In this document: in pieces, positions 22,477-43,015 of the stretch
How positions within the stretch are numbered: the first letter of the stretch is position 1
Layout of the letters: the number at the start of each line of letters is the position of its first letter
Assembly (NCBI GenBank): GCA_963824225.1
Contig: CAWGOF010000003.1
Location: 3,040,847 to 3,104,846, forward strand
Direction of reading: 5' to 3'
From: an uncultured Acidobacteriota bacterium
Lineage (GTDB): Bacteria > Acidobacteriota > Polarisedimenticolia > Polarisedimenticolales > Polarisedimenticolaceae
DNA length: 64,000 bases
Translations under genes and position numbers: made by a program
Notes under the pieces: model-generated
The model's input: the letters and a program-made list of their open reading frames with translations, nothing else
Databases searched by the model: none
What the model was told of the DNA's origin: nothing

Positions 22477-24684
22477 CTCGTGCTGCTCCTGGTCGGCAGC
22501 ACAGCGGACGCGCAGAGGAAGGAAGACTCGGGGATCGTCGAGACGACGCGGATCCGCCTCATGGCCGTGCGGTTCCGCGTCGCGCCGAAGGCCGAGGCGC
22601 CGCGCGACGCGTGCACGAAGCTCACGCGCGCCAACCTGTCGATCCGCGTGCGCGGCCAAGCGGTCGAGCCGAGCGCCATCGTCTCGCTCGCGAGGGACGA
22701 GCGCCCGATGCTCCACGCGTTCCTGATCGACCGCAGCGGCAGCATGGCCGACAAGCTCGACCTGACCCGCCGCGCGGTTCACACGTACATCCAAAGGCTG
22801 AGACCGGGCCTCGATCGCGGGATGGTCGTGTTCTTCGACGAGGACGTCATCCTCGCCTCTCCCGAAACCTCGGACCCCAAAGCGCTCGACCGGGCGGTCG
22901 ACAGCATCGTCCTGGGGTCGAGCACGGCGATCTTGGACGCGCTCTACGCGACGATCGGCGAGCTTCAGGCCCAGCTCGAGCGCCCGATCGTCCTCCTGCT
23001 CTCGGACGGCGTCGACACGGCGAGCATCGCGACCCAGGACGACGTCCTCGCCCGCGCGGCCGAGCGGCCCGACCTGGCCATCTTCCCGATCGGCGTCAAC
23101 CTCCCCGACATCTCCTCTCGCGGCCCGGGCCCGATCACGCCGAAGAAGTTCCTCGACAACCTGGCGCGCCACACGGACGGCGAGTTCCTCAACGTCCCGA
23201 CCGCCGGAGGCTTGGCCTCGGCCTACGACCGCGTGCGCGACCTCCTCGACTCCGAGTGGGAGGTCGTCGTCGCCGATCCCGACCCCAACCTCGACCCCGA
23301 GGACCCCAAGGTGCGCATCACGGGCAAGCCGTGCTCGATCCGGATCCTCGGCCAGGGCGGCGACGAGCCGCGGGAAAGCAAGAAGGAAACCGAGAAGCCC
23401 AACCTGGCCCCGCCGAACCCGCGGTGTGAGGCGAGCATCCACTGGCTCCCGCGCCAGTCGGCGCGCCTCGGCCCGCGCCTCGGTGCGGACTGGGCTGCGG
23501 AGACCACGACGACGGGCATCCGCGGCTGCGTCGTCGATCTCACCACGGACGACGGCCAGCTCTACGACAGCCAGGAGGTCGAGGGCGCCTGGTTCAACGG
23601 CTGGCGCGAGATCGGGAGCCGCCCGTTCGAGATCGATGCGCCCGCGATCGTCGACCTCCCGACGCGTCCCGAGAGCGCGCTCGACACGATCGCGCGCGAG
23701 CTGCTGAAACACACGGGACCGGTGCCCGACCCCGGCCCGCGCCAGATCCCGATCGAGCGCCACGCCCGGCCGTTCAAGGACCTGCCGTTCCTGTGGAACG
23801 GGCGCACCGCGTTCGCCGCACGGTCAGACCTGGCGCTCGCGCTCGCAGAGATCCCCGAGTACGCGGCGTACACCCGCACCCGCACGGAAAAGGAGGTCAA
23901 CCGCCTCCTCGACGATGAAGCTGCGCGCATCGTCCGCACGAGCAAGGGAATGGCACGCGACCGCATGCGCGACGCCCTCGCCGCCTCGCCCGAGGGCCAG
24001 GCGCTCCTCGCGCGGGCCGAGAACCCGGGGCCGCGCGAGCTCGAGCGGCACCTCGCGGCGTGGATCGGGGACATACCGGTTGCCGACGTGTTCCGAGACT
24101 GGGAGCTCCAGGCGATCGCAAGGGTCCTCGACGGCACAGCCGACCCGGATCCGCCGTTCGACGACGCCTATCGAGCCGCGTACGGCGTGTTCTTCGTCCC
24201 GTCCTATGCCCGGCTCCTCGCGCCGCTCGTCCTGGGCAAGGACCCCAAGACCGGCGCGATCGGCATGTGGCGCTTCGTGCTCCCGCGCACGGTGTGGATC
24301 GGCCCGCGCAAGAGGGACTTCGACGACCCCGAGTCCCGCCGCGTGCCGATGGACCTCGTGCCCGACCGCCCGCTCGGCCTGCTGCTCGCGCGCAAGATCG
24401 CCGAAGAAACGCGCGGAACAGGGCTCGCACCCAGGCGGCTGACCTACGAGCCCCTGGTAAAACCGAAGCAGTTCGATCCGGGGCGAGCGTTCACCGACGT
24501 GCGCGTGAGCCTGTACCTCGTCGATCCGAAGGGCCGCGACCTCCTCGTTATTGCGGATCTGGTTCGCGACGACGACCACCCGGTGGTGCGCGCCGCGGAC
24601 GTCCAATCCCCGAGCTTGAAGGACCTGTCCGCGGCAATAAAGGGGACACTCTTGGTTTCTGCCCCAAATGAGGCAGGAAACTAG
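22456..24684 (+). CDS. secreted von Willebrand factor A (VWA) domain protein
   Basis: 742 aa; signal peptide MRVSPFLLVLLLVGSTADA; MIDAS motif LIDRSGSMADKL...LLSDGVDT; first 7 and last 14 codons derive from repeat family 2 copies. Confidence 0.7.
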   Translation: MRVSPFLLVLLLVGSTADAQRKEDSGIVETTRIRLMAVRFRVAPKAEAPRDACTKLTRANLSIRVRGQAVEPSAIVSLARDERPMLHAFLIDRSGSMADKLDLTRRAVHTYIQRLRPGLDRGMVVFFDEDVILASPETSDPKALDRAVDSIVLGSSTAILDALYATIGELQAQLERPIVLLLSDGVDTASIATQDDVLARAAERPDLAIFPIGVNLPDISSRGPGPITPKKFLDNLARHTDGEFLNVPTAGGLASAYDRVRDLLDSEWEVVVADPDPNLDPEDPKVRITGKPCSIRILGQGGDEPRESKKETEKPNLAPPNPRCEASIHWLPRQSARLGPRLGADWAAETTTTGIRGCVVDLTTDDGQLYDSQEVEGAWFNGWREIGSRPFEIDAPAIVDLPTRPESALDTIARELLKHTGPVPDPGPRQIPIERHARPFKDLPFLWNGRTAFAARSDLALALAEIPEYAAYTRTRTEKEVNRLLDDEAARIVRTSKGMARDRMRDALAASPEGQALLARAENPGPRELERHLAAWIGDIPVADVFRDWELQAIARVLDGTADPDPPFDDAYRAAYGVFFVPSYARLLAPLVLGKDPKTGAIGMWRFVLPRTVWIGPRKRDFDDPESRRVPMDLVPDRPLGLLLARKIAEETRGTGLAPRRLTYEPLVKPKQFDPGRAFTDVRVSLYLVDPKGRDLLVIADLVRDDDHPVVRAADVQSPSLKDLSAAIKGTLLVSAPNEAGN

Positions 24685-24702
24685 GAGTGTCCCCGTTTCT
24701 GC
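24638..24702. repeat. palindromic repeat family 2, copy C
   Basis: ataaaggggacactcttggtttctgccccaaatgaggcaggaaactaggagtgtccccgtttctgc; contains stop of VWA gene. Confidence 0.8.
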
Positions 24703-24715
24703 TAGGCTCGGAAAC

Positions 24716-26734
24716 GTGGACACGAAGAAGCGCCGGCGCTGGCCGTGGATCGTCGCCGGGGTGCTCGTCGTGCTCGTCGCGACCGCAGCCCTGGCGCTCC
24801 CGCCGCTCCTCGACGTCGAGCGCTATCGCGGGCGCATCGAAGCCGCGCTGACCCAGGCGACGGGCTGGAACGCCGAGCTGGGCCAGATCGGCTTCTCCGT
24901 CTGGCGCGGCCTCGTGCTGACGGTGAGCCCGGTGCGCCTTGCCGCTCCAGGCGACACGTCCAGAGTCGACGTCGAGACGCTCGAGATCAGGGCCCGGGTC
25001 TGGCCGCTCCTGCGCGGCCGGCTCGAGGTTCAGAGCATCGACCTCGTCCGACCGAAGATCGCGCTCGTGCGCCAGACGCGACAGGCCGGCTGGATCCTCC
25101 CCGGCCGCGGCCGCCCCAAGCAACCGCCCCCGAGCCCGAAGCCCGAGCAAACGCAAGAAGAAGGAGCGCCCGCCAACGTCACGATCGGCCGCGTCCGCAT
25201 CAAGGACGGCACGCTCGCGCTCCACGACCGGGCGAACGAGCCGCCGTTCAAGCTCGGGCTCGACGGCGTCGGCCTCGACATCTCCCCGAGCTCGTACACG
25301 ATCGACGGCAGCGCCCGGCTCGCGCCCGGCGGCGGCCTGTTCGAGATCTCGGGTGGCGTCGACCGCGGCTTCGAGATCAAGGTGACCGACCTCCCGACCG
25401 AGTCGCTCCATCCGTTCCTCGGAAGCGAAATGATCCACGCCGGGGGCACGCTCTCGGGCCAGGCCAAGGTGACGCTCCCGCCGGCGATCCACGGCACGAT
25501 CGCCGGCCGCTCGATCACGCTCCTGGCGGGCGAGAAGCCGATGGATCAGATGCGCGCCGAGTTCGATGTCCGCGGCGCGGGCAAGGCCTGGCGCCTCGAA
25601 AGCCTGGCCCTCGACGCCCAGGGGCTGCGGGTGACCGGGCAGGGGCCGATCCTCCCCGCCGCCGACATGCGCTTCACCCTCGCCGCCCCGCTCGAAGACG
25701 TGCTCGCCGCAGCACCCTCGATCCTCCCGCTCCCGCTCGACCTCAGGCCCCCAGGCTCGGTCTCGGCCGACCTACGCATCCAAGGCAAAGAAGGTCAGCC
25801 GCTCGAAACGACCGCCACGGGCAAGCTCAGCGCGGCCGAGTTCATCGTCGCCGAAGCGGTCCCACCGGCGAAGGACGTGCAGGCCGAGTTCGAGCTCGAC
25901 CGCTACGGCGCGCTCGAGGTGCGCATCCTCGGCGGCACGATCGCCGGCGGCCCCGCGCGCGGCACGGCACGGCTCGAATCGATCGACCCACCGGGCACGC
26001 TGACCTTCGACGGCGGCCTGAAGGACGCCGCCTTCGGCGCGCTCCTCAAGGGCTTCGTCGCCAAGGCCGAGTCGATCACCGGCCCCACGGGCCTCAACGT
26101 CAAGGTCGGCCTCGACCTGACCCGCGAGACGATCGACGCCCGCGCGCTCTCGGGCCGCCTCGACCTCGACTCGAAGAACGTCCGCTTCCCGGGCTTCGAC
26201 CTCGACCAGGCCGTGCAGAAGAAGCTCGAGGAGAAGCTCGGCCCCCTCGCCGCGCTAGCCGCACTGACCGGAAGAACCGACGCAGCAACCAGCGCAGCGG
26301 AATCGAACCCCAAGGCCGACCGCGACCTACTCAAGGAGCTGACCGCGAGCGTCGACTTCGATCAATGGCCCTGGGGCCTCGACCGCCTGGGCTTCGACGC
26401 CGACGGCCTCGCCGCCGAGGGCACCGGCACCTTCGACCCCGAAGCGGGCGCAGTCAACCTCGACCTCACCGCGCGCCTGTCCCCCGAGCGCACCCGCCGC
26501 CTCGTCGAGAAGACGAAGCAGCTCTCCCGCCTCGTCGGCCCCGACGGCCGCCTCGCCCTCCCGCTGAAAGTGAAGGGCGCGCTCATGTCTCCGTCGGTCG
26601 AGGTCGACCTGGGCAAGGCGCTCACCTCGGGCGGCGAGACCAAGGAGCAGGCGATCCAGGGCCTGCTCGAAGGCCTGCTCGACCGCCGGAACAAGAAGAA
26701 GAACCCCCAGCCCACGCCGCAGCCGACGCCGTAG
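24716..26734 (+). CDS. AsmA-family protein
   Basis: GTG start chosen (VDTKKRRRWPWIVAGVLVVLVATAALALPPLL), N-terminal TM anchor then long beta-rich region with AsmA-like N-terminus (RYRGRIEAALTQATGWNAELGQIGFSVWRGLVL); the ORF-track ATG at 24668 lies inside the repeat. Confidence 0.55.
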   Translation: MDTKKRRRWPWIVAGVLVVLVATAALALPPLLDVERYRGRIEAALTQATGWNAELGQIGFSVWRGLVLTVSPVRLAAPGDTSRVDVETLEIRARVWPLLRGRLEVQSIDLVRPKIALVRQTRQAGWILPGRGRPKQPPPSPKPEQTQEEGAPANVTIGRVRIKDGTLALHDRANEPPFKLGLDGVGLDISPSSYTIDGSARLAPGGGLFEISGGVDRGFEIKVTDLPTESLHPFLGSEMIHAGGTLSGQAKVTLPPAIHGTIAGRSITLLAGEKPMDQMRAEFDVRGAGKAWRLESLALDAQGLRVTGQGPILPAADMRFTLAAPLEDVLAAAPSILPLPLDLRPPGSVSADLRIQGKEGQPLETTATGKLSAAEFIVAEAVPPAKDVQAEFELDRYGALEVRILGGTIAGGPARGTARLESIDPPGTLTFDGGLKDAAFGALLKGFVAKAESITGPTGLNVKVGLDLTRETIDARALSGRLDLDSKNVRFPGFDLDQAVQKKLEEKLGPLAALAALTGRTDAATSAAESNPKADRDLLKELTASVDFDQWPWGLDRLGFDADGLAAEGTGTFDPEAGAVNLDLTARLSPERTRRLVEKTKQLSRLVGPDGRLALPLKVKGALMSPSVEVDLGKALTSGGETKEQAIQGLLEGLLDRRNKKKNPQPTPQPTP

Positions 26735-26786
26735 CCAACCGCGGATTTCCAAGTGGCCGGCGCAGCCCTTGACGTCCGCCTTGGCA

Positions 26787-26802
26787 TACCATATTTGGTA
26801 TA
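26787..26802. promoter_or_regulatory. operator-like palindrome ATACCATATTTGGTAT overlapping putative -10 of higBA promoter (-35 TTGACG at 26769-26774)
   Basis: perfect 16-bp palindrome 14 bp upstream of higB ATG; typical TA autoregulation architecture. Confidence 0.45.
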
Positions 26803-26815
26803 GTACCTTCTGGTC

Positions 26816-27097
26816 ATGTGGGAGGTGTACGAGCACCGGCGGATCGGCCGCCGTGTTCAGCGTGTCCCAGTCGAGATCGTCAAGCGGTACGAGAAATGGA
26901 AGGACATAGTCCGAATCTCCGGTCCGGCCGGACTTCGTTTGATCAAGGGCTTCCACGATGAGTCGCTTCGTGGCGAATGGAGCGGGCACCGTTCTTCACG
27001 GCTTGGACTCCAGTACCGGGTGATCTACCGGATCGTTGGCCAAGACGTTCTGGTTGAGGTGATCGACATTACGGCTCACGACTACCGGAGAAGGTGA
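26816..27097 (+). CDS. higB: HigB-like RelE/ParE-superfamily toxin
   Basis: 93 aa; ...KRYEKWKDIVRISGPAGLRLIKGFHDESLRGEWSGHRSSRLGLQYRVIYRIVGQDVLVEVIDITAHDY matches HigB/killer-protein family pattern. Confidence 0.6.
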   Translation: MWEVYEHRRIGRRVQRVPVEIVKRYEKWKDIVRISGPAGLRLIKGFHDESLRGEWSGHRSSRLGLQYRVIYRIVGQDVLVEVIDITAHDYRRR

Positions 27098-27100
27098 ACG

Positions 27101-27367
27101 ATGGCACCGAAGGCATATCGAAAGGCCCGGCGACATATTGATGTCTCGGTTGGCGAGTCGGTTCGAATCATGCGGGAACTCCAGGAGCTGAGCCAGAACG
27201 AGCTGTCTGAGCAGACGGGGATTCCGCAGTCGACGCTATCGGCTATCGAGAATGATCGGGTGAACCTTGGTGTCGAGCGTGCGAAGGTGCTGGCGCGAGC
27301 ATTGAGGTGCCATCCGGCAGTGCTGGTCTTTCCGGGTTGGGTGGTTGGCGATGAATCGGCGGCATAA
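27101..27367 (+). CDS. higA: HigA-like XRE-family HTH antitoxin
   Basis: 88 aa; HTH ...MRELQELSQNELSEQTGIPQSTLSAIENDRVNLGVERAKVLARAL; 3 bp after higB stop. Confidence 0.65.
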   Translation: MAPKAYRKARRHIDVSVGESVRIMRELQELSQNELSEQTGIPQSTLSAIENDRVNLGVERAKVLARALRCHPAVLVFPGWVVGDESAA

Positions 27368-27488
27368 CAATCGGACGCAGCGTTCCGATCAAGGCCAACT
27401 CGGCCGTCAAGCGGATGCTCGACAGGTCGAAGCAAGGCCCGTCGTAGCCGTTTCGAAACCCCGGTTCCTGGACTTTCCTGCCGCGCGA

Positions 27489-27755
27489 ATGGATACTCCG
27501 ATCATGCGCGTGCCGCCAGACCTCGTCGAACTCGCGAAAAGCTACTCCGGAAAGTGGGTCGCTCTGCATCCGGACGATGGGTCTGTCGTGGCAGCGGGGC
27601 AATCGCCTCGGGAAGTCATGGAAGTCGCGGAGGCCGATGGGATCGACGAACCGTTCGTGCTTCACGTCTTCGATGACTACGGCCAGCTTGCTCGACCCCG
27701 GCCCCAGTTGGACGGCGAAAGCCTAGTCCCAGCCCCACCCGTGTGCCGAGGGTAG
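27489..27755 (+). CDS. hypothetical small protein
   Basis: 89 aa from ATG 27489 (MDTPIMRVPPDLVELAKSYSGKWVALHPDDGSVVAAGQSP...); start uncertain. Confidence 0.3.
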   Translation: MDTPIMRVPPDLVELAKSYSGKWVALHPDDGSVVAAGQSPREVMEVAEADGIDEPFVLHVFDDYGQLARPRPQLDGESLVPAPPVCRG

Positions 27756-27765
27756 GATACCGAGC

Positions 27766-27990
27766 ATGAGCATCGAAGAAATCGAGGCCGAAGCGCTCAA
27801 GCTGGATCCCAAGGCACGAGCACGGTTGGCCGAGAGGCTCCTCGAGAGCCTGGAGACGCTCTCCGATCAAGAGGCGGAACGCCTGTGGGCAGAGGAGGCC
27901 GCTCGGCGCGACGCCGACCTGGACGCGGCGCCGGAGACGGCACGCCCTGCCGCTACCGTCCTGCGTGAGGCTCGGGCCCGGCTGAAGTGA
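27766..27990 (+). CDS. putative addiction-module antitoxin (ParD/Phd-like small acidic helical protein)
   Basis: 74 aa; MSIEEIEAEALKLDPKARARLAERLLESLE... ; stop overlaps start of downstream toxin (TGAATG). Confidence 0.5.
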   Translation: MSIEEIEAEALKLDPKARARLAERLLESLETLSDQEAERLWAEEAARRDADLDAAPETARPAATVLREARARLK

Positions 27991-28284
27991 ATGGCCCGAC
28001 ACGAGTTTCACCAACTCGCCGAACGCGAACTGCACGACGCTACCCGATACTACGAGCTCGAGAGTCCAAGGTTGGGGCGCTCCTTCCTCAATGAGATCGA
28101 GCGGTGTCTGCGGGCGATTGTGGAACATCCCGAAGCGGGGAGGATCCTGCTCGGCTCCGTGCGTCGTCGCCTTCTGTGGCGCTTCCCTTATGCGCTCCTG
28201 TACAAGATCACGCCGGATAGCATCCGAATTCTGGCGGTCATGAACCTGAAGAGGCGTCCGACCTACTGGGTCGGGCGTGAGTGA
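27991..28284 (+). CDS. ParE/RelE-family toxin
   Basis: 97 aa; ...RYYELESPRLGRSFLNEIERCLRAIVEHPEAGRILLGSVRRRLLWRFPYALLYKITPDSIRILAVMNLKRRP typical ParE pattern. Confidence 0.6.
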   Translation: MARHEFHQLAERELHDATRYYELESPRLGRSFLNEIERCLRAIVEHPEAGRILLGSVRRRLLWRFPYALLYKITPDSIRILAVMNLKRRPTYWVGRE

Positions 28285-28308
28285 CGGAGCTGCAGCCGCC
28301 GGATCGCT

Positions 28309-28333
28309 CCACGTTGACCCGCGCTCGACCAGC
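28309..28333. repeat. 25-bp direct repeat, copy 1 (CCACGTTGACCCGCGCTCGACCAGC)
   Basis: identical copy at 29644-29668. Confidence 0.85.
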
Positions 28334-28414
28334 AAGGCTTGCTCGAAGACCTCCTCGAGAGCCCGCGCCATCGCCCACGCCCTGAGGATCCAAGCGATCG
28401 CGACGACCGCAACG

Positions 28415-28888
28415 ATGGCGGTCGTGCTCTCCCTCTGTCTCTCCTGCTCGAAGCCGACCCGCGTCGTGGTCGACATGTACGACGGCTTCGAGTTCGCGGA
28501 GCAAAGGCTCGCCCGCGTCCGAGCGACGACGTTCGTGATTGCGCTCATCGAGCCCGACGAATCGAAGGTCCTGTTCGAGTTCACGATCCCCGACGACCAG
28601 GTGCGCCCGCTGCCGCTGACCGTGCCCGAGATCTCGGGGATCCGCACGACGATCAGGCCCCCACCGCAGGCCCGCTCCCCGTTCCACGGCGGGACGTTCA
28701 CCGTGACCCGGGCGATCCGGGGCAGCGCGTTCGAGGTCGAGTTCGACCTCGGATCTGGCGCCGATCGCGTGGTCGGTCGCGGCGTCGCTCGCCCCGCGAG
28801 TCAGACTCGCCCCGCCGTGTGGCCGTACGATCCGCGCCCGCCGAAGCCGAGCGTCTGGGCTCGGATCATGGATGCCTTGGGCGAGTAG
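28415..28888 (+). CDS. hypothetical lipoprotein
   Basis: MAVVLSLCLSCSKPT lipobox-like N-terminus; start uncertain. Confidence 0.35.
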   Translation: MAVVLSLCLSCSKPTRVVVDMYDGFEFAEQRLARVRATTFVIALIEPDESKVLFEFTIPDDQVRPLPLTVPEISGIRTTIRPPPQARSPFHGGTFTVTRAIRGSAFEVEFDLGSGADRVVGRGVARPASQTRPAVWPYDPRPPKPSVWARIMDALGE

Positions 28889-28959
28889 GGGGACTCAGCG
28901 TTCTCGCCGTGCAACCCAGTGCTCCTGGCTTCGGGGGTCTGCTCGCGTATACTCACCTC

Positions 28960-29400
28960 ATGCCCCCGAAAAGCCGCGCAAAGAGGCGCACGAATGCCCG
29001 TGGCCATCGTGCCGCGCGCACCCGCAACGACGCAATGGTCGATGCTTTCGTCCGCGTGCTCGGGTTCCCGGAGGAGGACGGCGACGGATGGGTCGCCGTG
29101 GCTCTGGAGATGGACCTTTGGGGCCACGGTCGAAACTTCCGCGCCGCGTTCGCCGACCTCAAAGACCTCGTCCAGATGCAGCTCAGCTTTGCCTATCAGC
29201 AGCAGCGGCCGGAGATGATCTACCGCCCAGCCGACCCCCGGCTGTTCGACATCTTCCATCACGTCCACACGGCACGACTCAGGCAGGCCGGTTCACGCCG
29301 AAAGCCCGAAGAGGGTGACTACAAGGCGGTCGGCCTGGAGGTTCCTCCGCCCGAGGTCATCAGCAAGCTGGAGCCCAAGTACGCCCTAGCAGATGCCTAG
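28960..29400 (+). CDS. HicB-like antitoxin (UPF0150/RNase H-like fold) candidate
   Basis: 147 aa; ...VRVLGFPEEDGDGWVAVALEMDLWGHGRNFRAAFADLKDLVQMQL resembles HicB N-terminal domain; overlaps start of hicA-like ORF. Confidence 0.45.
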   Translation: MPPKSRAKRRTNARGHRAARTRNDAMVDAFVRVLGFPEEDGDGWVAVALEMDLWGHGRNFRAAFADLKDLVQMQLSFAYQQQRPEMIYRPADPRLFDIFHHVHTARLRQAGSRRKPEEGDYKAVGLEVPPPEVISKLEPKYALADA

Positions 29401-29653
29401 AGCGCTCCGGTACCGCGAGGTAGTTCGACGCCTCCGGGACCATGACGGGCGGTTCCAGGTCTGGGAGCGCCGGGGCAAGGGCAGCGAGCGGATGCTCTCC
29501 ACCCGGACGTCAACGGGCGATCCGCCAGCTACCCCGTCAAATGTCACGGGGAAGGGACCGAGCTCGGCAAGGGAACGCTGAAGGCGATCATCCGGCGCTT
29601 CGACCTCCCGGCCGACATCTTCGACGAGGCGACCTGTCCGCCCCCACGTTGAC
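29393..29653 (+). pseudogene. HicA-like toxin with single-nt frameshift (~29487)
   Basis: frame 1: MPRALRYREVVRRLRDHDGRFQVWERRGKGSERMLS; +1 frame continues HPDVNGRSASYPVKCHGEGTELGKGTLKAIIRRFDL (HicA-like double-stranded RNA-binding fold); an extra C in the run ctctccaccc would restore the frame. Confidence 0.45.
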
Positions 29654-29668
29654 CCGCGCTCGACCAGC
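29644..29668. repeat. 25-bp direct repeat, copy 2
   Basis: CCACGTTGACCCGCGCTCGACCAGC; contains hicA stop codon. Confidence 0.85.
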
Positions 29669-29710
29669 GTGGTAGCGTCGCCACCCATTGAGGGCCGGGC
29701 GGGGCCGATC

Positions 29711-30715
29711 GTGAGCGGCACATTCCTCGACGCGATCGTCGAGCGGAACAAAGCGTTCGTTGCCAGGCGCGCAGCGCAGCCGCTGGCTGCGCTCGAGCCG
29801 TTGCACCTGGCCGTCGTCGCCTGCTACGACCCGCGCCTCGACGCCCTGTTCCAGCCCGCCCTGGGCTACGAGCCGGGGAAGACGTTCCTCTTCCGCACCG
29901 CGGGTGCCCTCGTCCAGCCCACGGGGGCGACCCTGCGCTCGCTGTCGATGGCCGTCTACATGTTCGGCGTGACCGAGGTCCTCGTCGTCGGCCACACGAG
30001 CTGCCGCATGGCCCAGTTCCAGGCGAACCAGTTCGTCGAGACGTTCCGCCGCCGCGGCGTGACACGCGAGGCCTTCGGGGAGAAGGACCTGCGCGAGTGG
30101 GCCGGCGCGATCCCGAGCCCCAGGCGCGGCGTCGAGATCTCGGTCGCCAACATCGTCGCCGCACCGTTCCTGCCGAAGGACCTGGCCGTTGCCGGCGCCG
30201 TGCTCGACGACGAGACGGGCGCGCTCGAGATCGTCGTGCGGCCGGGCGAAACCGTGGCGCCGCCGCAGACGCGAGAGCAAGAGTTCGCGCAACCCGTGCC
30301 GCAGACGCCAGCGCCGGAAGCAGCGACCGCTGCCGCAGCGGCCGCTGCGGCAAAGACCGCAGCCGCAGCAGCAGCTTCGACTGCGCCACCGACCGCCAGC
30401 GCCGCGCCCGCGCCGGGGGAAGACGGCGCCGCCGCCGCGCTGACCCACGACGTCACCGAGTTCGCCCGCCTCCTCGGCTCGAAGCAGCGCTGGCGCGACG
30501 ACCTGAAGACGCTCCAGGGCGAGCTCGACCGGCCGCACCACCCGCTCGTCAAGTACCGGATGCTCGAGAGCATCGCCCGCCGCGCCGGTGCCGAATCAAG
30601 AGAGGTCCTCGACGCCTTCGAGCGCGTCAAGCGCTCCGTGATCGCGGCCCGGCAGAGCCTCGAGACCGAGGACCTGTATCGTCTGTTCCTGCAGGTCGTG
30701 GGGAAGCAAAAGTGA
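29711..30715 (+). CDS. beta-carbonic-anhydrase-like domain protein with Ala/Pro-rich linker and C-terminal helical domain
   Basis: VVACYDPRLD and VVGHTSCRMAQ resemble beta-CA CxDxR / HxxC zinc-ligand motifs (divergent); GTG start at 29711 chosen. Confidence 0.4.
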   Translation: MSGTFLDAIVERNKAFVARRAAQPLAALEPLHLAVVACYDPRLDALFQPALGYEPGKTFLFRTAGALVQPTGATLRSLSMAVYMFGVTEVLVVGHTSCRMAQFQANQFVETFRRRGVTREAFGEKDLREWAGAIPSPRRGVEISVANIVAAPFLPKDLAVAGAVLDDETGALEIVVRPGETVAPPQTREQEFAQPVPQTPAPEAATAAAAAAAAKTAAAAAASTAPPTASAAPAPGEDGAAAALTHDVTEFARLLGSKQRWRDDLKTLQGELDRPHHPLVKYRMLESIARRAGAESREVLDAFERVKRSVIAARQSLETEDLYRLFLQVVGKQK

Positions 30716-41651: not shown

Positions 41652-43015
41652 GCGGGGCGACGTACAGCGAGCGTGCGGGAGCGCTGCGGCGGTACAAGCC
41701 ATACCCGGCCTACAAGGACTCCGGCGTCGAGTGGCTGGGGGAGATTCCGGCGCATTGGGATCTGCGCCGGCTCAAGACCAGCGCTGCTGTTCAGCTCAGC
41801 AACGTCGACAAGAAGTCGGTTGAAGGCCAGGAAGCAGTGCGGCTCTGCAACTACACCGACGTCTACTACCACGAGCGCATCTCAGCAAACCTGGACTTCA
41901 TGGCAGCCACGGCGACATCGGACCAAGTGCGCCGCTTTGCACTACGCAAGGGCGATGTGCTCATCACCAAGGACTCGGAGTCTTGGACCGACATCGCGGT
42001 GCCCACGGTCGTAGCGGAAGATCTGCCCGGAGTGTTGTGCGGCTATCACCTCGCCCACATCAGACCCACTCACGTTTGCCACGGACCCTTTCTCGCGCGG
42101 GCCTTCAGCGCGATTGGCCCTCGGGATCAGTTTCAAGTCGCGGCCAACGGCATCACTCGTTTCGGGCTTGGCGGCGATGCGATTGCAACCGGGCTGTTCG
42201 CAATGCCCCCCGAGCCCGAGCAACGCGCCATCGCCGCCTTCCTCGACCGGGAGACGGCGCGGATCGATGCGCTGGTGGCGAAGAAGGAGCGGCTGATCGA
42301 GTTGCTCCAGGAGCAGCGCACCGCCCTCATCACCCGCGCCGTCACCAAGGGCCTCGACGCGAATGCCCCGATCTCAGGCACGGGCTCTACCGTCTTTCCT
42401 CCGGTCCCGTCGGGGTGGGAGTTGCGGAAGCTGCGGCGTCTCCTCACGCGGGTGAAACGACCCGTCAAAGTTGACCCTGACTCTGAGTACCGGGAGATCG
42501 GCATCCGCTCGTGGGGCAAAGGCATCTTTCACAAGGAACCCGTGCGCGGGGTTCTGCTCGAGGACAAGAGTGTGTTCGGTATCGAGCCGGGCGACTTCGT
42601 GCTCAACATCGTCTTCGCATGGGAAGGCGCAGTCGCCGTTGCTGCCGAACCGGAGCGTGGAATGGTCGGCTCGCACCGTTTTCCCACGTTTCGCACCTCC
42701 GAGGAAGTTGATCTGGACTACCTCTTGATGGTTTTTCAGACCAAGCATGGCCGTGCGTTGATGGAGGTGAACTCGCCAGGTGCTGCGGGTCGCAACAAGA
42801 CGATCAGGGTAGACCAGTTTCTCGATGAGCTGGTGCCGCTGCCTCCGGTCGCGGAACAGAAGGAGATTGTCCGACGGTTTAGGAGCGATGAAGTGCGGCT
42901 CGGCGGACTCGTCGGGCGGCTTTGCGAGGCCATCGACCGCCTCAAGGAGCTGCGCACTGCCCTCATTTCCGCCGCGGTGACGGGCAAGATCGACGTGCGG
43001 GAGGTCGAGGCATGA
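41648..43015 (+). CDS. hsdS: Type I R-M specificity subunit (HsdS), two target-recognition domains
   Basis: 455 aa; GTG start overlapping upstream stop; two TRD halves separated by conserved coiled-coil repeats (…LQEQRTALITRAVTKGLD… and …LKELRTALISAAVTGKIDVRE). Confidence 0.75.
   Translation: MSGATYSERAGALRRYKPYPAYKDSGVEWLGEIPAHWDLRRLKTSAAVQLSNVDKKSVEGQEAVRLCNYTDVYYHERISANLDFMAATATSDQVRRFALRKGDVLITKDSESWTDIAVPTVVAEDLPGVLCGYHLAHIRPTHVCHGPFLARAFSAIGPRDQFQVAANGITRFGLGGDAIATGLFAMPPEPEQRAIAAFLDRETARIDALVAKKERLIELLQEQRTALITRAVTKGLDANAPISGTGSTVFPPVPSGWELRKLRRLLTRVKRPVKVDPDSEYREIGIRSWGKGIFHKEPVRGVLLEDKSVFGIEPGDFVLNIVFAWEGAVAVAAEPERGMVGSHRFPTFRTSEEVDLDYLLMVFQTKHGRALMEVNSPGAAGRNKTIRVDQFLDELVPLPPVAEQKEIVRRFRSDEVRLGGLVGRLCEAIDRLKELRTALISAAVTGKIDVREVEA

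Follow-up and report, generated by a model that had tools for sequence, protein, structure and literature searches.

The window analysed here is a stretch of 64,000 nucleotides (64 kb) from an uncultured Acidobacteriota bacterium, in which an accessory segment of ~2.9 kb (26735-29668) lies between an asmA-like gene and an operon headed by a beta-carbonic-anhydrase-like (CA) gene, all genes of the region being encoded on the + strand. The segment contains three type II toxin-antitoxin (TA) modules, an orphan open reading frame (ORF) of the DUF5678 family and a gene for a small secreted or lipoprotein-like protein, as well as two exact copies of a 25-mer. The TA hot spot is genuine, yet it is an ordinary one whose modules are decaying and belong to known kinds, and the 25-bp repeat is probably the scar of an illegitimate join by which two alleles of this one hot spot became stacked. 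The features to which the text refers are given below; L001 to L008 denote related loci recovered from metagenome contigs, and the Logan contig is an independent assembly of 10.5 kb from run ERR11630401.

24668 to 26734, + strand: asmA-like gene, the conserved left flank (PF05170 AsmA on the Logan contig; NCBIfam AsmA/GspN matches)
26786 to 26804, + strand: imperfect inverted repeat ATACCA-TATT-TGGTAT with an extended -10-like element, by position a candidate operator/promoter
26816 to 27097, + strand: RelE/StbE-family toxin gene of 93 amino acids (aa), first in its operon as in higBA (TIGR02385)
27101 to 27367, + strand: XRE-type helix-turn-helix (HTH) antitoxin gene, 88 aa (PF01381 HTH_3, 52.5 bits)
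27504 to 27755, + strand: orphan DUF5678 ORF (PF18929, 33.2 bits), called as 83 aa on the Logan contig
27729 to 27765, + strand: remnant of an asmA 3' terminus, its stop codon TGA now TGT, with a parD-like promoter region behind it (TAGGAT, 7 nucleotides (nt) before the ATG), from blastn against L001
27766 to 27990, + strand: PF09720 (Unstab_antitox) antitoxin gene, 74 aa (39.3 bits)
27991 to 28284, + strand: ParE-family toxin gene, 97 aa (PF05016, 39.9 bits against a cut-off of 23)
28309 to 28333, + strand: 25-mer copy 1, an exact repeat with -35 TTGACC plus 14 nt of spacer and no -10 after it; left flank orthologous to the parE-to-promoter junction of L004
28333 to 28399, + strand: probable asmA 3'-end remnant from another allele (25/31 match to 26657-26687)
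28415 to 28888, + strand: small secreted or lipoprotein-like gene, 157 aa, of a rare family (no Pfam match)
28960 to 29400, + strand: putative HicB-like antitoxin gene, 146 aa (121 aa from 29035 according to the gene caller), from the AlphaFold2 (AF2) fold and gene context
29393 to 29652, + strand: hicA pseudogene, with a 1-nt deletion near 29498 and its native stop lost
29644 to 29678, + strand: 25-mer copy 2 plus the retained TGGTAGCGT, a complete promoter-like element of the CA operon as judged from its conservation in relatives
29711 to 30715, + strand: CA gene, the conserved right flank (PF00484), with NfeD and Band_7 genes downstream

The G+C content falls from ~0.72 in the flanks to 0.58-0.65 across 26650-29500. 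This low-G+C stretch is of foreign composition and was counted as support for an accessory TA islet. The initial annotation, made from the DNA letters and a list of ORFs, had placed three TA modules within 3 kb, and family, fold and synteny evidence supports that reading: family or fold matches to TA proteins were obtained for the modules, which are thereby predicted to act as such, with some caveats regarding the names that had been given to them. In particular, the labels 'HigBA' and 'ParD/ParE' describe an architecture and not a tested family membership.

In the first module the toxin gene precedes the antitoxin gene within one operon, the latter beginning 4 nt past the toxin stop (i.e. after a 3-nt intergenic gap). 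The 93-aa toxin scores 30.0 bits with the RelE/StbE model TIGR02385, above the cut-off of 27.9, but fails the HigB model PF05015 (13.8 bits against a cut-off of 27), and its matches in the PDB, to a RelE-fold protein and to RelK, are weak. The HTH antitoxin, next to its PF01381 match, scores 18.9 with the HigA equivalog TIGR02607, for which the cut-off is 47.7. What the module shares with those of the HigBA type is the toxin-first order with an XRE-HTH partner, a RelE-family toxin of ~93 aa, an 88-aa HTH_3 antitoxin, the 3-nt gap and an inverted repeat over the promoter region; it differs from them in the model that its toxin fits (RelE/StbE in place of Pfam HigB), in an antitoxin that stays below the cut-off of the HigA equivalog and in a candidate operator that is imperfect.

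That candidate operator had been described as a perfect 16-bp palindrome overlapping the -10. The 16-mer ATACCATATTTGGTAT (26786-26801) does overlap an extended -10-like element, TGGTATAGT (26796-26804, 11 nt upstream of the toxin ATG and thus near-leaderless), but its reverse complement differs at 2 positions, i.e. it forms 7/8 pairs, with 6-bp arms ATACCA and TGGTAT around TATT. Such symmetry is by itself not unusual, because the window holds 103 16-mers with at least 7/8 pairs, and also 55 perfect 6-4-6 inverted repeats; among the 103 it is the sole AT-rich one. A scan for consensus promoters and terminators flagged no promoter within the islet. Type II TA operons are usually autoregulated, and from this analogy and its position the inverted repeat is a plausible candidate operator for the HTH antitoxin, which would probably repress its own operon via the ATACCA-N4-TGGTAT repeat where it overlaps the extended -10.

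The second module had been called a ParD/ParE-like pair, a name that fits its toxin (PF05016 ParE; PDB match to ParE2, 8c26, at E 0.014) and not its antitoxin, for which Pfam and NCBIfam gave no match to the ParD (ribbon-helix-helix, RHH) family and which belongs to Unstab_antitox, PF09720. The parE start directly abuts the stop codon of the antitoxin gene. The order with the antitoxin first, the abutting stop and start and the 97-aa PF05016 toxin are all shared with known ParE modules that carry PF09720/TIGR02574 'addiction module component' antitoxins, and the difference from ParDE proper resides in the antitoxin not being a ParD (RHH) protein. At the matching site of two related lineages (L001 and L004) a parDE-like module has decayed to remnants: both carry the remains of an orthologous PF09720 gene (87-94% DNA identity to the window) and L004 in addition a remnant of parE.

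The antitoxin of the third module is the least conventional protein of the islet. No sequence-level match was found for it in Pfam, NCBIfam or the PDB (the last by single-sequence and by profile searches), and in a database of 5.8 billion proteins only 4 close clusters turned up; a profile search extended the family to 477 representatives, i.e. ~477 clusters counted at 50% identity. Nine of 80 members weakly match DUF7387, and none of the 80 matches the HicB models. An AF2 model built from 4 sequences was uninformative (predicted local distance difference test score, pLDDT, of 42), and the model from the 80-sequence alignment (pLDDT 85) has a beta-beta-beta-alpha...beta topology. When the latter was compared to the PDB with Foldseek, ranks 1-10 were all HicB chains, with probabilities of up to 0.99 but E values of 0.05-0.5; the template modelling (TM) score to the N-domain of 6g1c was 0.69, over a partial RNase-H-like N-terminal fold. 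No RHH or HTH DNA-binding domain was found in the model, in which the core fold is followed by only one strand and one short helix (residues 122-136) that match no family. The ORF always precedes hicA, with an 8-nt overlap (4/4 loci). Because the ten best Foldseek hits are all HicB and hicA is adjacent, its identity rests on fold and gene context and not on sequence family, and the prediction that the 146-aa ORF is a HicB-like antitoxin is supported in that sense.

The toxin gene of this module is broken, as the initial annotation had proposed. In a three-frame reading the N-terminal part of hicA lies in one frame and the C-terminal part in another; when one base is repaired, the resulting protein of 86 aa reaches 28.3 bits with PF07927 (cut-off 27), and L005 supplies the missing base, as it reads ATGCTGTTCCACCC where the window reads ATGCTCT-CCACCC, which places the 1-nt deletion near 29498. 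Since the native stop has been lost, the 3' frame runs into copy 2 of the 25-mer and ends at the TGA inside TTGACC. Intact 78-aa HicA homologues, ending in FFD directly before the stop, occur in L006 and L007 (PF07927 scores of 25-26 bits). L005 carries a lesion as well, but this is a 28-nt deletion unlike that in the window, so that hicA has been inactivated independently in two lineages. For the name HicBA, the caveat is that the antitoxin has a HicB fold (AF2 and Foldseek) but no HicB sequence match, and that an intact HicA ORF is absent.

Compared to the HicAB systems of E. coli (6hpb), B. pseudomallei (6g26) and S. pneumoniae (5yrz), the module has the dsRBD-type (double-stranded-RNA-binding-domain) HicA (PF07927), the N-terminal beta-beta-beta-alpha-beta fold of HicB and overlapping hicB and hicA genes (by 8 nt here) in common. 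It differs in gene order (hicB, then hicA), in a HicB-like protein that has neither a Pfam HicB match nor a recognisable RHH/HTH domain, and in a toxin that is a pseudogene here and, independently, also in L005. The HicB-fold family of ~477 clusters at 50% identity is not recognised by the current Pfam and NCBIfam models. In L006 (3-673, minus strand) the hicB-hicA pair adjoins a vapBC-like pair (an RHH protein and a PIN-domain protein), and the hicBA family is therefore also found in TA clusters elsewhere.

Upstream of hicB a conserved TATACT precedes the ATG by 6 nt. More generally, -10-like hexamers are found only 6-11 nt before the start codons in three operons of the islet (26799-26816, 27753-27768 and 28948-28962), in the form of TATAGT-11-ATG, TAGGAT-7-ATG and TATACT-6-ATG, the latter two being conserved in L001 and L005. 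These short distances suggest leaderless or near-leaderless transcripts.

The 25-mer, CCACGTTGACCCGCGCTCGACCAGC, is found exactly at 28309-28333 and at 29644-29668, at a spacing of 1335 bp, in agreement with the perfect direct repeat reported earlier. A third copy with up to 3 mismatches is absent from the window (0 expected in shuffles) and a degenerate version had 0 matches in 185,579 GTDB species representatives and in IMG/VR, so that it is not a common genomic motif. Copy 2 has the layout of a promoter: TTGACC (29649-29654) is followed by an 18-nt spacer and an extended -10 (29670-29678), with the CA start codon 32 nt downstream. The arrangement TTGACC-N18-TG(G/A)TAGCGT is invariant in copy 2 and in L001, L004 and L005, and the spacer differs at 3-8 positions. 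A genuine extended -10 promoter of the CA operon should leave just this pattern, with hexamers and spacing fixed and the spacer drifting, and we take the region of copy 2 as the operon's conserved, predicted promoter of the sigma-70 type, although a simple consensus promoter scan did not flag the TTGACC-N18-TGnTAGCGT element. The -35-like nature that had been ascribed to the TTGACC within the 25-mer fits with its invariance in four lineages at 18 nt from the -10.

Copy 1, on the other hand, continues into AAGGCTTGCT, and at a distance of 16-18 nt behind its TTGACC a -10-like hexamer is missing; it reads as a truncated half-promoter, and only copy 2 keeps the -10 element. The surroundings of the two copies have different affinities. 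The right flank of copy 2 is orthologous in all relatives, the left flank of copy 1 corresponds to the parE-to-site junction of L004 (Smith-Waterman score of 51; 85% over 167 nt) and the two left flanks are unrelated to each other (Smith-Waterman score of 5).

One might suppose that the 25-mer is a selected cis-element, i.e. a shared promoter or a transcription-factor site (TTGACC-N5-TCGACC, in an 11-bp register) that co-regulates the lipoprotein-hicB genes and the CA operon, as the -35-like TTGACC is invariant in four lineages and the two copies are perfectly identical though part of the spacer varies among lineages. We regard this as very unlikely, because copy 1 lacks the TGnTAGCGT, and any -10-like hexamer at a suitable distance, and the second half-site is not conserved (TCGACC has become TCGGCC in L001 and L004 and TCGGCG in L005). 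Moreover, hicB has its own conserved TATACT close to its ATG, and relatives with the lipoprotein-hicBA genes have no such element upstream of the lipoprotein gene.

Comparison with the related loci points to another origin of the repeat. Homologues of the CA-like protein that are 70-77% identical were found on metagenome contigs, and more distant ones carry the names Thermoanaerobaculia, Polarisedimenticolaceae or Acidobacteria; these database names place the clade in Acidobacteriota, close to Thermoanaerobaculia. A search of genome contigs with the same protein yielded no related locus. The flanks of the islet are conserved: asmA is syntenic in L001, L002 and L004 (72-75% DNA identity by blastn), and the CA gene is ~82% identical to that of L001-L005, as is the CA-NfeD-Band_7 region (82%). 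The gap between these flanks occurs in several states. In L002 and L003 asmA abuts or overlaps the CA gene, and TA genes and the 25-mer are both missing, i.e. the site is empty. In L001 asmA is followed by what is left of the PF09720 gene (55 aa, internally deleted), the initial ~12 nt of parE, CCACGTTGACCCGCGTTCGGCCCGC, ATGGTAGCGTC and the CA gene, and L004 is laid out likewise, both the PF09720 gene and parE having decayed to remnants; the single site of these two loci, CCACGTTGACCCGCGTTCGGCCCGC, is identical to the 25-mer of the window at 22/25 positions. L005 starts within the lipoprotein gene and reads lipoprotein 3' end, 263 nt, hicB, broken hicA, 75 nt, CAACGTTGACCCCGCTTCGGCGGGC, GTGATAGCGTC and CA gene. 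It is extended to the left by L008, which joins it via an overlap of 102/102 identical positions and has a retropepsin-like gene upstream of the lipoprotein gene; the 25-mer is absent within 334 bp upstream of the latter.

There are thus two arrangements, X (parDE-like genes before a single site; L001 and L004) and Y (lipoprotein-hicBA before a single site; L005/L008), and the window carries X and then Y in tandem. The parDE-like DNA is 85-94% identical to the remnants in L001/L004, compared to 72-75% for asmA and 82% for CA-NfeD-Band_7, which suggests that sharing of the X block postdates the divergence of the core genome. The lipoprotein-hicBA block is ~80% identical to L005, similar to the core genes, and the Y block could have been inherited vertically. 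Because the relatives carry X or Y separately, each with a single site, and the window has both, we consider it probable that the 25-mer repeat is the scar of an illegitimate join that stacked two alleles of the hot spot.

The join itself would lie directly behind copy 1. The 31 nt from its last base onwards match the asmA 3' end (26657-26687) at 25/31 positions, which is the best match among all positions in the window, and the Smith-Waterman score of 18 was reached by only 2/3980 random 66-mers. When read in the asmA frame the stretch encodes QGLLEDLLE where the resident gene encodes QGLLEGLLD. The fact that 3/6 of the nucleotide differences are synonymous suggests that it came from a different, functional asmA allele and not from decay of the local copy. 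The evidence is therefore suggestive, though not conclusive, that 28333-28399 represents an asmA 3'-end remnant that marks an illegitimate junction with copy 1. A retropepsin-like gene as in L008 was rejected as the source of this stretch (Smith-Waterman score of 8, against 18 for asmA).

In terms of mechanism, accessory DNA would have accumulated in the asmA-CA gap in one clade, and the order at the join would be promoter position 25, the last ~78 nt of an asmA gene and then the lipoprotein gene. Homology-facilitated illegitimate recombination and Campbell-type integration create direct repeats at genomic-island hot spots. Accordingly, the join may have arisen by homology-facilitated illegitimate recombination with DNA of a related strain, or a fragment consisting of an asmA 3' end, lipoprotein-hicBA and promoter may have been circularised and integrated by a crossover within 25 identical bases. 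A length of 25 bp is at the lower limit for exchange that depends on RecA. With the second route the perfect identity of the two 25-mer copies would also be accounted for; the sequence by itself does not separate the two. The locus shares with such events the stacking of foreign blocks between conserved flanks, the single illegitimate junction, a direct repeat that consists of native flank sequence and the lack of a linked recombinase, the mechanism here being proposed from sequence. A literature search for homology-facilitated illegitimate recombination in combination with TA yielded nothing useful.

Several observations weigh against the stacking of two alleles. The asmA remnant depends on the 25/31 match and a weaker second block, with an empirical p of ~5e-4 for a match that was noticed post hoc. 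Zero differences in 25 between the copies are unexpected when lineages differ (asmA tails differ by 19%), and are compatible with stacking only in the case of a recent duplication, or of a crossover that the identity itself mediated. No crossover or breakpoint emerged from a profile of sliding identity along asmA, and for the 20 nt that separate hicA from copy 2 no homologue was detected in L005. Furthermore, no relative was found in which asmA lies directly before the lipoprotein gene, L008 having the retropepsin-like gene at that position, and the relatives are short metagenome contigs of low coverage.

Since X and Y exist separately in related populations and exact short repeats are typical of graph mis-joins, the tandem might also be chimeric, the assembler having fused alleles of two co-existing strains at the shared 25-mer. 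This is extremely unlikely. The Logan contig from run ERR11630401, which was assembled independently, has the same gene order and spacing across both copies, with a constant offset of 22390 from 27101 to 29711, which disfavours an artefact. Logan uses k = 31, which exceeds the 25-bp repeat, so that no graph ambiguity is expected. In addition, the source contig measures 3.55 Mb.

The final ~80 nt of asmA (from 26657) reappear as remnants within the islet, and the stretch behind copy 1 is not the only place where this appears to be the case. L001 9716-9788, which comprises the asmA end and the intergenic, parD-like upstream region, matches window 27729-27799 at 91.8% (blastn), so that the RelE-HTH-DUF5678 block lies between the present asmA stop and the remnant of an earlier asmA terminus. 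The C-terminal tail of the DUF5678 protein is translated from this remnant. Together with 26705-26737 the remnant (27729-27765) forms an imperfect direct repeat of ~18-20 nt that brackets the block, and it is as such a second, older scar at the locus. The DUF5678 ORF itself, situated between two TA modules without a partner gene, was missing from the initial annotation, and the literature on DUF5678 provided nothing useful.

A further repeat is present in L005, where the 3' end of the lipoprotein gene, stop included, occurs twice as a 29-nt direct repeat (69-97 and 991-1019; 26/29) on either side of hicB-hicA; the downstream copy is missing in the window. With this repeat and that around the RelE-HTH-DUF5678 block, long repeats of resident gene ends recur at the locus.

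This recurrence has a bearing on the possibility that the 1310-bp segment between the 25-mers (28334-29643, lipoprotein-hicBA) is a mobile unit, which either generated a 25-bp target-site duplication in the CA promoter or was integrated by a recombinase with the 25-mer as att core. The repeat is exact and sharp-edged and brackets a discrete block of genes, L001 and L004 resemble empty sites (left flank, single 25-mer, right flank), and the 26/29 repeat around hicBA in L005 and the ~18-20-nt imperfect asmA-end repeat around RelE-HTH-DUF5678 show that long flanking repeats recur here. Nevertheless, we hold the possibility to be unlikely. Neither the segment nor its neighbouring genes include a transposase, an integrase or a terminal inverted repeat, only the lipoprotein gene, hicB and hicA lying between the repeats, and a screen that covered the 11 genes of the 10.5-kb contig and the loci of the relatives revealed no tyrosine or serine recombinase. 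To our knowledge, 25 bp is far longer than the target duplications of transposases, and thus too long for one here. In L005/L008 the lipoprotein-hicBA genes occupy the same position relative to the promoter and CA gene without a 25-mer upstream of the lipoprotein gene, the ~80% identity of the block to L005 is like that of the core genes, which fits vertical descent over recent insertion, and the left end of the supposed element resembles the asmA 3' end. Of two specific sites that were considered, an integron attC was rejected because the 25-mer lacks palindromic symmetry and its GTTGACC departs from GTTRRRY, and a dif/XerCD-type site because there is no 11-6-11 symmetry in it.

The three flanking repeats, which enclose lipoprotein-hicBA in the window (25/25), hicBA in L005 (26/29) and RelE-HTH-DUF5678 (~18-20 nt), also form the ground for a related idea: the asmA-CA gap could be a dedicated site of cassette capture, which would gain one ~1-kb TA block after another. 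The mechanism would either need no recombinase or act in trans, and 20-30 nt of the resident promoter or gene end would be its substrate. If this were true, the 25-mer would be an att-like site and not a passive scar. We give the idea little credence.

The join of two alleles thus remains the probable source of the repeat. The initial annotation had left the choice between insertion scars and shared promoters, and elements of both appear to apply: the repeat would be a scar and the 25-mer is part of a predicted promoter, but a simple insertion with target-site duplication is not indicated and copy 1 has no -10. An exact repeat beside a TA cassette can thus have arisen by duplication of part of a host promoter, and is not necessarily the signature of a mobile element or an operator, which calls for caution in annotation. 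The locus leaves the current understanding of TA systems unchanged. It does provide a small, well-resolved example of TA modules that pile up and decay at a chromosomal hot spot, where the states of the site across lineages include empty, decayed parDE-like remnants, an independently broken hicA in two, and the tandem stack of the window.

The lipoprotein-like gene, which opens the Y block, belongs to a family for which only 5 homologue clusters were found; a Pfam search with the 157-aa protein gave no match, and a metagenome scan with it found nothing. By comparison to L008, the ancestral ATG has changed to GCG at 28400 and a new ATG is present at 28415. Two codons have also been lost (28400-28417 against L008 335-360), and the new start lacks a charged N-region, as a result of which export may be impaired.

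Some other observations concern the surroundings of the islet. The C-terminus of asmA ends in a 12-nt tandem repeat (CAGCCCACGCCG CAGCCGACGCCG, 26706-26731) that encodes PQPTPQPTP, and the sequence at this position varies among lineages. The DNA downstream of CA-NfeD-Band_7 is variable in the relatives too, with defence-like or mobile genes (ScmC, AbiJ_NTD4, HEPN_Swt1, DUF499 and a DDE_3 transposase) in L002 (12000-21266) and L003 (3087-4643). A search with Rfam at gathering thresholds gave no match anywhere in the 64-kb window, and ARAGORN reported a tRNA-like gene at 41721-41809, of undetermined type and with a 4-base anticodon (ggga).

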